From a virus (Duplodnaviria > Heunggongvirae > Uroviricota > Caudoviricetes), in the IMG/VR virus record IMGVR_UViG_2695420523_000001, positions 1 to 6,247 of that record: a DNA stretch of 6,247 nucleotides; one strand, written 5' to 3'. Shown one piece after another: positions 3,001 through 6,000 of the stretch (position 1 is its first letter; each line of letters opens with the position of its first letter). A program made the position numbers.

Positions 3001-6000
3001 ATTGTCGTTGCCCAGTTGTCGCCGGAATTCACCGCTCGCCTTGTTGACCGCTGGCGAGAACTCGAAGGGGCAACCGCGAAAATACCACAAACCTTTTCTG
3101 AGGCATTGCGCCTTGCGGCCGACCTTGAAGACCAGAAGGCTGAACTGGAGAAACAGCTTGCTCTCGCAGCACCTAAAGTTGAGTTTGCCGATCGCGTTGG
3201 CGAGTCCAGCGGAATTTTGATTGGAAACTTTGCAAAGGTTGTTGGTATTGGTCCAAACAAACTGTTTGCGTGGATGCGCGATCACAAAATCCTTATTGCT
3301 TCAGGCTCCCGGCGCAATGTGCCAATGCAGGAATATATGGATCGTGGCTATTTCACAGTGAAAGAAACAGCGGTCAACACAAATCACGGAATACAGATAT
3401 CGTTCACCACAAAAATCACCGGGCGTGGTCAACAGTGGCTGACCAGAAAGCTGCTCGATAACGGAATGCTGAAAGTAACAGGGGAGGCTGCTTAATGGCT
3501 AAACCAGCGCGAAGGAAATGCAAAATATGCAAGGAATGTTTTCACCCGGCATTCTCAAATCAGTGGTGGTGCTGCCCGGAACACGGAACTCAATTAGCAC
3601 TCGAACGACGAAGTAAAGAACGCGAAAAAGCGGAAAAAGCAGCAGAGAAGAAACGACGACGAGAGGAGCAGAAACAGAAAGATAAACTGAAGATTCGAAA
3701 ACTCGCCTTAAAGCCCCGCAGTTACTGGATTAAACAAGCCCAACAAGCCGTAAACGCCTTCGTCAGAGAAAGAGACCGCGACTTACCATGTATCTCGTGC
3801 GGAACGCTCACGTCTGCTCAGTGGGATGCCGGACATTACCGGACAACTGCTGCGGCGCCTCAACTCCGATTTGATGAACGCAATATTCACAAGCAATGCG
3901 TGGTGTGCAACCAACATAAAAGCGGAAATCTCGTTCCGTATCGCGTCGAACTGATTAACCGCATCGGGCAGGAAGCAGTAGACGAAATCGAATCAAACCA
4001 TAACCGCCATCGCTGGACTGTCGAAGAGTGCTGGGCCATCAAGGCGGAGTATCAGCAGAAACTCAAAGACCTGCGAAATAGCAGAAGTGAGGCCGCATGA
4101 CGTTCTCAGTAAAAACCATTCCAGACATGCTCGTTGAAGCATACGGAAACCAGACAGAAGTAGCACGCAGACTGAAATGTAGTCGCGGTACGGTCAGAAA
4201 ATACGTTGATGATAAAGACGGGAAAATGCACGCCATCGTCAACGACGTTCTCATGGTTCATCGCGGATGGGGTAAAGATACTGATGCGTGATATCCGGCA
4301 GGTTCTTGAGCGCTGGGGTGCATGGGCGGCAAATAACCATGAGGATGTTACATGGTCGCCCATTGCTGCCGGATTTAAGGGACTGATCCCCGAAAAAGTA
4401 AAATCACGTCCACAGTGTTGTGACGATGACGCGATGATTATATGCGGGTGTATGGCTCGCCTTAACAGGAACAACAGCGATCTGCATGACTTGCTGGTTG
4501 ATTATTACGTGTTGGGGGAGACGTTCATGGCGCTGGCACGGAAACATGGGTGCTCTGACACCTGTATAGGTAAACGCCTTCACAAAGCGGAGGGGATTGT
4601 TGAAGGCATGCTGATGATGCTGGGAGTGAGGCTTGAGATGGATCGGTATGTTGAGCGTGAATTGCCGGGAGGGAGAACCTCTGTATTTTATCAGCGAAAA
4701 AATAGTTTACGATCGTAAAAATCTGCATATCATGATAAGAGTGGTTACATTGCCACGCAGCCGAACCCGCCGATGCGCGGGTTTTTTTGTACCCAGAATC
4801 CTGTGAGCTATACGGAAAGTACACAGAAAGGAAGGTGCGACCGCAATTAATAACAAAATCTTAAAAATCGCATATGGCACTATTAGTTTTCTAAATATTG
4901 TATATTTTAAGTATTGCAGGATAACCCTGTAACGAAGTTTGCGTAACAGCATTTTGCTCTACGAGTTTGCCAGCCTCCCCTGGTGGCTGGCTTTTTTTGT
5001 ATCCGTTCAACAGGAATGTTACATACCTCACAATTAAGTCAGTTGAATGTTGTCTGCCCGGATGAGAATTTGTTAGAAAAAAACTGCATGGTGAATCCCC
5101 CTGAGCGGAGGGGCGACTGGTGACGGTATAATCTCTGATTATCAAAACGAGAATGACGAGGGTTTAGTGGCACCGGGCTGAACTCACCGGGAGGCACCCG
5201 GCACCATGCAATGGCACATAGCGCCACTCTCCAGCCCCTCTCCGGAGGGGCTTTCTTATGGACAAAAAAGCCCGCGCTGGGAGACGCGGGCGGCAAGGAA
5301 TAAACAATGAAACGTGAAGTAATATTTCAGCTGGCGAATAATACCCTATAGTAATCACTCTGCGCAACTGCGCGACCTTTTTCGAATTGCGGGCTGTAGT
5401 CTCCCTTCTGCCATTGTCCTGTAACTTCCGGACTTCAGCCCGCTCCTTATTTTACTCACAATATTATCCCGGCCGGGAGGATTCATGGCATTTAAACACT
5501 ATGATGTTGTCAGGGCGGCGTCGCCGTCAGACCTTGCGGAAAAGCTGACACACAAACTGAAAGAGGGCTGGCAGCCGTTTGGTAGTCCGGTGGCTATAAC
5601 CCCTTATACCCTGATGCAGGCGATTGCAGCAGAAGGTGATGTGGTGGTCAGTGGTGCAACTGAGCCGGATTGGTACTACGTCATCGTACTGGCCGGGCAG
5701 TCCAATGCAATGGCTTACGGTGAAGGGCTTCCGCTTCCGGATTCATACGATGCTCCGGATCCGCGCATTAAACAGCTGGCGCGCCGCAGTACAGTGACGC
5801 CGGGTGGGGCTGCCTGCAGATATAACGATATTATTCCGGCCGACCACTGCCTGCATGATGTGCAGGATATGAGTACGCTGAATCATCCGAAGGCAGACCT
5901 GAGCAAAGGGCAGTACGGCTGTGTCGGCCAGGGCTTACATATTGCCAAAAAACTGCTTCCGTATATCCCGAATAACGTGGGGATCCTGCTGGTACCATGC

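Follow-up and report, generated by a model that had tools for sequence, protein, structure and literature searches.

Convergent small RNA (sRNA) genes have been described in lambdoid prophages by Tree et al. 2014, who reported "convergent sRNA pairs" located between the pR' moron site and a conserved esterase open reading frame (ORF) (PMC4104026). Expression and Hfq binding of pair members are known from homologues in enterohaemorrhagic Escherichia coli (EHEC) Sakai, by Hfq UV cross-linking and analysis of cDNA (Hfq-CRAC) and Northern blotting, and in enteropathogenic E. coli (EPEC), by RNA interaction by ligation and sequencing (RIL-seq) and RNA-seq (PMC4104026, PMC8550237). Here we analyze a 6,247-nt stretch of Caudoviricetes DNA, positions 1 to 6,247 of IMG/VR record IMGVR_UViG_2695420523_000001 (hereafter the window), in which two terminators on opposite strands abut at 5233-5291. 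A convergent sRNA pair, with an STnc100 sRNA on the + strand and an EcOnc08/21/42-type sRNA on the minus strand, very likely explains both terminators. The structures, homology, coordinate mapping and layout presented below are our own, while expression, Hfq binding and targets are taken from the literature on homologues.

The minus-strand RNA has been detected in two pathogenic strains. RIL-seq of EPEC E2348/69 identified the sRNA E2348C_1409.E2348C_1408.IGR on the minus strand at NC_011601 1444797-1444978, ~182 nt (PMC8550237 Table S6), and Pearl Mizrahi et al. 2021 give EcOnc08/21/42 as its EHEC homologues (PMC8550237). Minus-strand Hfq-CRAC peaks in Sakai prophage Sp4 include EcOnc08 (1179938-1180010) and EcOnc21 (1180016-1180101; PMC4104026 Table S2), and a Northern blot for EcOnc08/21/42 in Sakai gave a band of ~271 nt (PMC4104026). 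EcOnc42 was described by Sy et al. 2020 as an sRNA bookending stx1AB on the 3' side (PMC7547250).

The abutting terminators and the genes they end

The elements of the pair and the gene that bounds it are as follows.

5057..5263, + strand: STnc100-family sRNA gene, homologue of EcOnc05 (Sakai Sp4) and EcOnc27 (Sp5), by Rfam RF02076
5233..5259, + strand: intrinsic terminator of the STnc100-family sRNA, with stem-loop 5233-5252 and interrupted U-tract 5253-5259, from the scan, folding and the last helix of the Rfam alignment
5264..5291, minus strand: intrinsic terminator of the minus-strand sRNA, with stem 5291..5284 / 5277..5270, loop 5283..5278 and U6 5269..5264, from the scan, folding and homologue 3' ends
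5264..5456, minus strand: predicted body of the minus-strand sRNA (homologue of EcOnc08/21/42 and E2348C_1409.E2348C_1408.IGR), by homology, with an uncertain 5' end
5298..5292, minus strand: seed CCUUGCC of the minus-strand sRNA (+ strand GGCAAGG), from the target motif in PMC8550237 Fig. S5 and Table S7
5485..6247, + strand: 5' part of a SASA/NanS-p-type esterase gene, the 'conserved hypothetical phage ORF' bounding the pair, from the Prokaryotic Genome Annotation Pipeline (PGAP) in ERL04-3476 and tblastn relatives

Read directly from the window sequence, the + strand hairpin 5233-5252 is AGCCCCTC-TCCG-GAGGGGCT, followed by TTCTTAT. Four bases, GGAC, separate this terminator from a run of six A residues (A6) at 5264-5269, and the second hairpin, 5270-5291, lies directly 3' of A6 on the + strand (GCCCGCGC-TGGGAG-ACGCGGGC). 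On the minus strand the second element reads GCCCGCGU-CUCCCA-GCGCGGGC and then UUUUUU. Element 5291..5264 is a canonical intrinsic terminator on that strand, with a G+C-rich stem, a short loop and no fewer than 5 U directly after the stem. An uninterrupted U6 follows the stem on the minus strand only, and the U-tract of the + strand terminator is broken (UUUCUUAU). In the window the consensus terminator scan returned 18 terminator-like sites, where shuffles gave 7.7 +/- 2.7; minus-strand site 5291..5270 ranked first (8 pairs, 7 of them G-C, loop of 6, tail TTTTTTGTCC) and + strand site 5233-5252 third (8 pairs, 6 G-C, loop of 4, tail TTCTTATGGA). Folding gave -17.4 kcal/mol (z -2.9) for the + strand hairpin; its minus-strand counterpart reached -16.9 kcal/mol (z -3.7) and makes up 84% of the ensemble. 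Sequence, scan and folding agree with the initial annotation, which had placed terminators at 5233-5259 and 5262-5291 with A6 at 5264-5269. A bidirectional terminator, that is, one hairpin with an A-tract on its 5' side and a T-tract on its 3' side, is found in neither case: the + strand hairpin lacks a 5' A-tract (CACTCTCC), and the second has A6 on its 5' side and GGCAAGG on its 3' side.

The + strand terminator belongs to STnc100. The Rfam match to RF02076 at 5057-5263 spans the full model (1-206; 166.9 bits, gathering score 47, E 1.1e-38), and hairpin 5233-5252 is the final helix of the model alignment. Because it is the last helix of a full-length STnc100 match, this terminator marks the end of an sRNA gene and not the end of an operon. 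The initial annotation, which had set the second terminator against an otherwise entirely + strand operon, missed this STnc100 gene. With STnc100 occupying its own gene at the + strand terminator, the pair therefore represents two convergent sRNA genes and not an operon terminator next to an antisense one. Rfam places the STnc100 family in the equivalent position in Sakai Sp4, Sp5 and Sp15 and in EPEC PP6, and the + strand Hfq-CRAC peak EcOnc05 maps onto its 3' half. EHEC EDL933 also transcribes STnc100 copies, one of which has been confirmed by Northern blotting (PMC5331693).

The STnc100 region also carries open frames on the opposite strand. An 85-aa minus-strand ORF at 5039-5296 of the window has a sub-threshold YmjE-like Pfam match (14.6 bits, cutoff 27). 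The corresponding PGAP annotation in EPEC (L085 353-451, L003 2442-2540) is a partial 'hypothetical protein' pseudogene that runs antisense to STnc100 over its 3' half, probably a spurious call over the sRNA gene. One locus type, represented by L031, has two tandem STnc100 copies (222-415 and 691-879) before the esterase gene; its AT-rich leader is different, and it lacks a convergent minus-strand terminator.

By alignment, the minus-strand gene is a homologue of EcOnc08/21/42 and of E2348C_1409.E2348C_1408.IGR. Alignment of the fetched EPEC locus sets the sRNA at 1444797-1444978 onto window 5264..5444, and its printed 3' sequence, ...CCUUGC..CCCGCGUCUCCCUGCGCGGGCUUUUUUU, agrees with the minus strand of the window. 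The Sakai peaks map to 5265-5337 (EcOnc08) and 5343-5428 (EcOnc21). Both the EPEC 3' end (1444797) and the edge of the EcOnc08 peak fall at the minus-strand terminator 5264..5291. The EcOnc08/21/42 Northern probe corresponds to the + strand of window-equivalent 5338-5372 and therefore detects minus-strand RNA. Over 5264-5484 the window is 94% identical to both Sakai Sp4 (208/221) and EPEC PP6 (207/221); over 5264-5456 the counts are 180/193 and 179/193. The initial annotation had predicted a minus-strand RNA with its 3' end at about 5262-5264 and its origin either in 5292-5484 or within the esterase gene at its 5' end, and the 94%-identical EPEC and Sakai loci do make such an RNA, which by homology supports that prediction. 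The prediction was right but is not new, as the convergent pair and its minus-strand RNA were already known from experiments in pathogenic E. coli.

Use of the published coordinates depends on the genome version. At Sp5, NC_002695.2 is shifted by +135 relative to the published NC_002695.1 coordinates, an offset obtained by comparing the AsxR Rfam match with the EcOnc02 peak. At face value EcOnc42 (Sp15) would lie inside the esterase coding sequence (5481-5563), a placement rejected on the strength of that offset; after correction it coincides with EcOnc21 (~5346-5428). CRAC, differential RNA-seq and Term-seq coordinates published in 2014-2020 likewise need offset correction for use on the current Sakai record (L086, L087, L088).

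The layout recurs with other sequences. Upstream regions of 80 esterase homologues from viral contigs were sorted into locus types, with type A being that of the window. A second type has AAAAAAT-GCCCGAA-TGGG-TTCGGGC and a third has A8-GCCCGAG-TGGG-TTCGGGC, and in all three the hairpin lies a few bases past an STnc100-type terminator with its A-run facing that terminator. Read on the minus strand, the stems are GCCCGCGU/GCGCGGGC in type A, GCCCGAA/UUCGGGC in the AgvB type and GCCCGA/UCGGGC in AsxR-like loci; these compensatory differences come from direct reading, since MAFFT aligns the variants by sequence and out of structural register. The same layout with differing hairpin sequences argues against chance. 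Two more locus types lack the convergent pair. Rfam identifies the second type as AgvB (96.5 bits, L006) and the third as borderline AgvB, both on the minus strand and abutting STnc100, and AsxR (88.1 bits) adjoins STnc100 in a like arrangement in Sakai Sp5; AgvB or AsxR abuts STnc100 in this layout in L006, L005, L044 and Sakai Sp5. The AgvB (RF02702) and AsxR (RF02703) models, which the same method finds in the sister loci, gave no match in the window even at E<=1. Membership of either family was therefore rejected, and the minus-strand sRNA has no Rfam family.

Among 5426 complete E. coli genomes, 964 (~18%) contain the 193-nt region at >=80% coverage, in up to 6 places per genome; 52 phage records, VT1-Sakai among them, contain it as well. 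None of 12 sampled E. coli genome rows had an annotated feature over it, and among the sampled phage rows only phi296 did, with two minus-strand "hypothetical protein" calls. An exact-pattern scan for the type A terminator and seed in one genome per species returned no matches and is uninformative on distribution outside E. coli. A full-text search for the hairpin sequence returned only an unrelated paper.

Seed, candidate promoters and alternative readings

Seed 5298..5292 adjoins the 5' side of terminator stem 5291..5270, which leads into U6 at 5269..5264, and CCUUGCC does not vary among the type A copies examined. RIL-seq in EPEC found the RNA as second partner in 100% of its chimeras (PMC8550237); second-partner position in all chimeras is an sRNA signature. 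The chimera ends fall at 1444795-1444817, i.e., at the terminator (PMC8550237). Among its partners are the leaders of cfa (767 chimeras) and dppA (197) as well as emrA, tir, espC and pcm, and the partners have the common motif GGCAAGG/GGCAGGG (PMC8550237). GGCAAGG is complementary to window 5298..5292. In the minimum free energy fold of the short form the terminator is isolated, and the upstream U-rich stretch and the seed are single-stranded. In the 193-nt fold, part of this upstream stretch pairs with the 5' end of the RNA. The main internal helix of this predicted 193-nt RNA is formed by an inverted repeat, 5389-5401 / 5431-5443 (GCGGGCTGTAGTC / GACTTCAGCCCGC), which has one mismatch in the window and is a perfect 12-bp stem in AgvB-type loci; it would also fold in the esterase 5' leader.

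The minus-strand RNA is, on this comparative analysis, most likely an Hfq-dependent trans-acting sRNA. Its gene would be transcribed leftwards; the promoter would lie close to the esterase start or a little inside it, or else be an internal one of the AgvB type, and the transcript would end at hairpin 5291..5270 plus U6. The hairpin and U-tail would both stop the transcript and anchor Hfq, as in other Hfq-dependent sRNAs, so that terminator 5264..5291 is presumed to be an Hfq-binding 3' module. Single-stranded CCUUGCC would then pair with GGCAAGG-bearing targets, which in EPEC would include the cfa and dppA leaders, tir and others. The terminators are four bases apart; therefore, each also blocks read-through into the opposite gene. 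It is plausible that such insulation is a secondary role or a by-product of the sRNA pair and not a separate explanation.

Three candidate promoters and one + strand hairpin lie upstream of the predicted RNA or within its template.

5463..5491, minus strand: candidate promoter ATGCCA-17-GATAAT, with a start at ~5456 and an RNA of ~193 nt; the sole sigma-70-like match nearby in the scan
5338..5367, minus strand: candidate internal promoter TTGCGC-18-TATTAT, with a start at ~5331 and an RNA of ~68 nt; from the relaxed scan and AgvB alignment
5501..5530, minus strand: weak candidate promoter CTGACG-18-CATCAT in the esterase 5' end, with an RNA of ~231 nt; from the relaxed scan
5361..5382, + strand: small hairpin and T-run (TGCGCAACTGCGCG..TTTTT), from the scan and folding; homologous to the PasD-type terminator

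The initial annotation had suggested searching the minus strand of 5292-5550 for a promoter. The scan and relaxed scan yielded these three candidates, for RNAs of ~68, 193 or 231 nt compared with published sizes of ~182 (EPEC) and ~271 nt (Sakai), although none is a strong consensus promoter. Estimates of the 5' end vary accordingly: 5444 from EPEC RNA-seq coverage, ~5456 from the best promoter match, and ~5534 if the Sakai size of 271 nt is exact. ATGCCA-17-GATAAT gives the size (193 nt) nearest to the EPEC estimate of 182 nt and is unchanged among type A copies, but it overlaps the esterase start codon and ribosome-binding site, and its conservation is for that reason not independent evidence. 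Of the three, CTGACG-18-CATCAT alone comes near the ~271 nt of the Sakai Northern blot. The internal candidate, TTGCGC-18-TATTAT, aligns column for column with TTGCGC-18-TAAAAT upstream of the AgvB and AsxR-like genes; in AgvB loci that element lies 7 nt before a start that would yield the published 60-nt AgvB. In 5338-5372 the window differs from Sakai/EPEC at five positions, none of them within either hexamer, and the predicted ~68-nt RNA coincides with the EcOnc08 peak (5265-5337). A short AgvB-like isoform from the internal promoter is thus possible as judged from the sequence, and it would be invisible to the published Northern probe because the probe lies upstream of the ~5331 start. Hairpin 5361-5382 is retained in locus types A, B and C, and its complement carries the -35 TTGCGC of the internal candidate in both the window and the AgvB-type loci.

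These alignments allow a more specific proposal, which we put forward tentatively and regard as rather unlikely. The locus may be a nested unit on an AgvB/AsxR scaffold, with their promoter and terminator kept and the body and seed replaced, giving a ~68-nt RNA plus longer isoforms and tying a trans-acting seed to local control of late/lysis read-through. The longer isoforms, arising from promoters located at the esterase start or within it, would in that case run antisense in cis to the Q-dependent late transcript and to the leader and start region of the esterase.

Other explanations of the terminators were weighed against the convergent sRNA pair. The initial annotation had itself offered a bidirectional insulator as an alternative. 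It is very improbable that the pair is an insulator only, stopping read-through both ways with no stable functional minus-strand RNA. In that reading it would keep transcription leaking from STnc100 or tR' out of the lysis genes, and transcription from promoters to the right out of Q and the toxin site. The four-base spacing, with each terminator blocking entry to the other gene, would suit such a role, as would the need of prophage late regions for silence in lysogens. However, homologous loci produce an abundant Hfq-bound minus-strand RNA that is sRNA-like in RIL-seq, the seed beside the terminator is invariant, and A-tract/T-tract symmetry is absent from both hairpins. Insulation could be a side effect, but it is not needed as the explanation. 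A role for hairpin 5270-5291 in the + strand late mRNA, in processing or stabilizing it at the 5' end of the esterase message with A6 being incidental, has a slightly lower probability still. Although the hairpin also folds in + strand RNA (72-nt fold) and a Q-modified pR' transcript must traverse it, the stem is followed on that strand by GGCAAGGAAUAAAC, without a U-tract. The 5'-side A-run is moreover retained in all three hairpin variants, and the CRAC and RIL-seq reads of homologues are strand-specific and come from the minus strand.

We find it least credible of all that the terminator ends a minus-strand mRNA for a small protein, and a minus-strand small-protein gene was rejected as a candidate. 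Open frames are present (43 aa, 5486..5355; 67 aa, 5367..5164), and PHANOTATE calls minus-strand coding sequences here in phage phi296, yet neither ORF has any Pfam match, no Shine-Dalgarno sequence was seen upstream and PGAP annotates none here. The 43-aa frame lacks an ATG and contains stops in AgvB-type, AsxR-like and PasD-type loci, its six variable amino-acid positions among type A copies are all replacements, and the 67-aa ORF passes through both terminators. A + strand leader peptide of 14 codons (5307-5351, behind AAGGA) was also rejected, as ACA replaces its ATG in Sakai and EPEC and in the majority of type A copies. That the window copy is a silent relic, with the terminator intact and the promoter decayed, is improbable, if less so than the readings above. 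Its promoter matches are weak, and 13 of 193 positions differ from the characterized copies. On the other hand, the hexamer pairs of all three candidate promoters, the terminator stem and the seed show no change from Sakai and EPEC; 53 E. coli records match at >=99% identity, and E. coli E2863 and the phages phi296 and Stx2_12E109 have copies that are 100% identical over the full 193 nt.

Several points weigh against the convergent sRNA pair as we describe it. The published sizes disagree, at ~271 nt in Sakai and ~182 nt in EPEC, and the scan and relaxed scan found no strong consensus promoter for the minus-strand RNA, the best match being 9/12. The Sakai peaks were mapped on the assumption that Sp4 coordinates are the same in NC_002695.1 and.2, a fit judged by internal consistency alone. 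The Sp5 offset may be up to ~+142 by our reckoning from the tR' end, and this range was carried over unverified to Sp15. A 2021 review lists the function of EcOnc42 as unknown, with none known in EHEC (PMC7873438). The window copy has 13 substitutions in 193 nt relative to Sakai Sp4, and we infer its expression, like the location of its promoter, from these homologues.

Our analysis adds little that is new about the RNA itself. It shows that a real antisense sRNA gene can be found by reading raw sequence with care, and the way the internal promoter candidate aligns with that of AgvB provides a concrete, testable hypothesis on transcript boundaries.

Prophage context

The window represents the late-regulatory region of a Shiga-toxin-phage-like lambdoid prophage, in the order NinG, NinH, Q, pR', StxS/tR', an empty moron site and the esterase. 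A 99.8% identical locus in E. coli ERL04-3476 is annotated with NinG, NinH, Q, a SASA-family carbohydrate esterase (start = 5485), holin and lysozyme, placing Q at window-equivalent ~4284-4718. A pR'-like site lies at 4706-4733 and tR', a hairpin with a U-tract, at 4967-4997. Window 4690-4997 is ~98% identical to the segment of the Sakai Stx2a prophage Sp5 running from the Q end through pR' and StxS to tR', and the similarity stops just past tR'. No stx genes lie between tR' and 5057, so that the moron site is empty, and STnc100 begins ~60 nt past tR'. No tRNA genes were found in the window. In related phages ileZ/argN/argO lie in a ~450-bp insertion that is missing here, as are the tRNA and stx genes of Sp5 and phi296. 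This stx-negative prophage retains the full small-RNA set of Shiga-toxin phages, namely StxS/tR', STnc100 and the convergent EcOnc08-type sRNA.

Two further elements were observed on the + strand. A strong terminator-like hairpin with a T-run, GAACCCGC-CGATGC-GCGGGTTT, lies at 4763-4791, ~30-50 nt past the pR'-like -10, and is conserved in Sp5 and phi296. The long form of StxS is reportedly 258 nt and reaches tR', and so this hairpin evidently lets some transcription pass. Rfam matches lie in a row at 1769-1967: c4-a1b1 (1769-1821, 50.6 bits), isrK (1782-1856, 76.6 bits) and C4 antisense RNA (1883-1967, 75.1 bits). Downstream are a 225-aa ORF (2021-2698) and a 242-aa ORF (2767-3495), the latter annotated as anti-repressor in phi296. 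Together these resemble either a C4 immunity module of the P1/P7 type or an IsrK module of the Gifsy type, placed within the nin region.

Comparison with known systems

Compared with the pairs of Tree et al. 2014, the position is the same, downstream of Q/pR'/tR' and upstream of an esterase-type ORF, and the 3' ends meet, STnc100 ending at 5263 and the minus-strand tail at 5264. The arrangement also resembles convergent intrinsic terminators between convergent bacterial genes, in that two G+C-rich hairpins lie within a few bases of each other and each has its U-tract on its own strand. The window pair comprises two separate unidirectional terminators, in contrast to the one hairpin between an A-tract and a T-tract that makes up a bidirectional terminator.

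The closest counterparts are EcOnc08/21/42 and the EPEC sRNA, with which the minus-strand gene shares its strand, its slot between STnc100 and an esterase-type ORF, 93-94% identity, the terminator stem and the CCUUGCC seed. The window copy differs in having A6 rather than A7 in the tail, one loop base and ~11 more substitutions in the body. Its prophage has an empty moron site, without tRNAs or stx from tR' to STnc100, unlike those of the characterized copies.

In PasD-type loci (bioRxiv 10.64898/2026.05.13.724894), the 5' body is common to STnc100, and the downstream hairpin corresponds to window 5361-5382. Both terminators and the minus-strand gene are absent there, and the + strand sRNA extends to the downstream hairpin. 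The PasD Northern probe matches L047 directly upstream of the 5361-5382-type hairpin, which with its T-run is presumably the PasD terminator in those loci.

AgvB and AsxR occupy the same slot and strand, are likewise convergent with STnc100 with abutting terminators, and share the outer stem GCCCG/CGGGC and a U-tract. The window also aligns with the segment upstream of these genes, GAAAAAGGCCGCGCAGTTGCGCAG, in which -35 TTGCGC is followed 18 nt downstream by a -10. The bodies and seeds differ, with CCUUGCC in the window and 5' ends that mimic GcvB or FnrS in AgvB/AsxR. Characterized type A transcripts are 182-271 nt, compared with 51-60 nt for AgvB/AsxR. Finally, the EPEC RNA pairs with mRNA leaders, whereas AgvB and AsxR are anti-sRNAs that sponge core sRNA.

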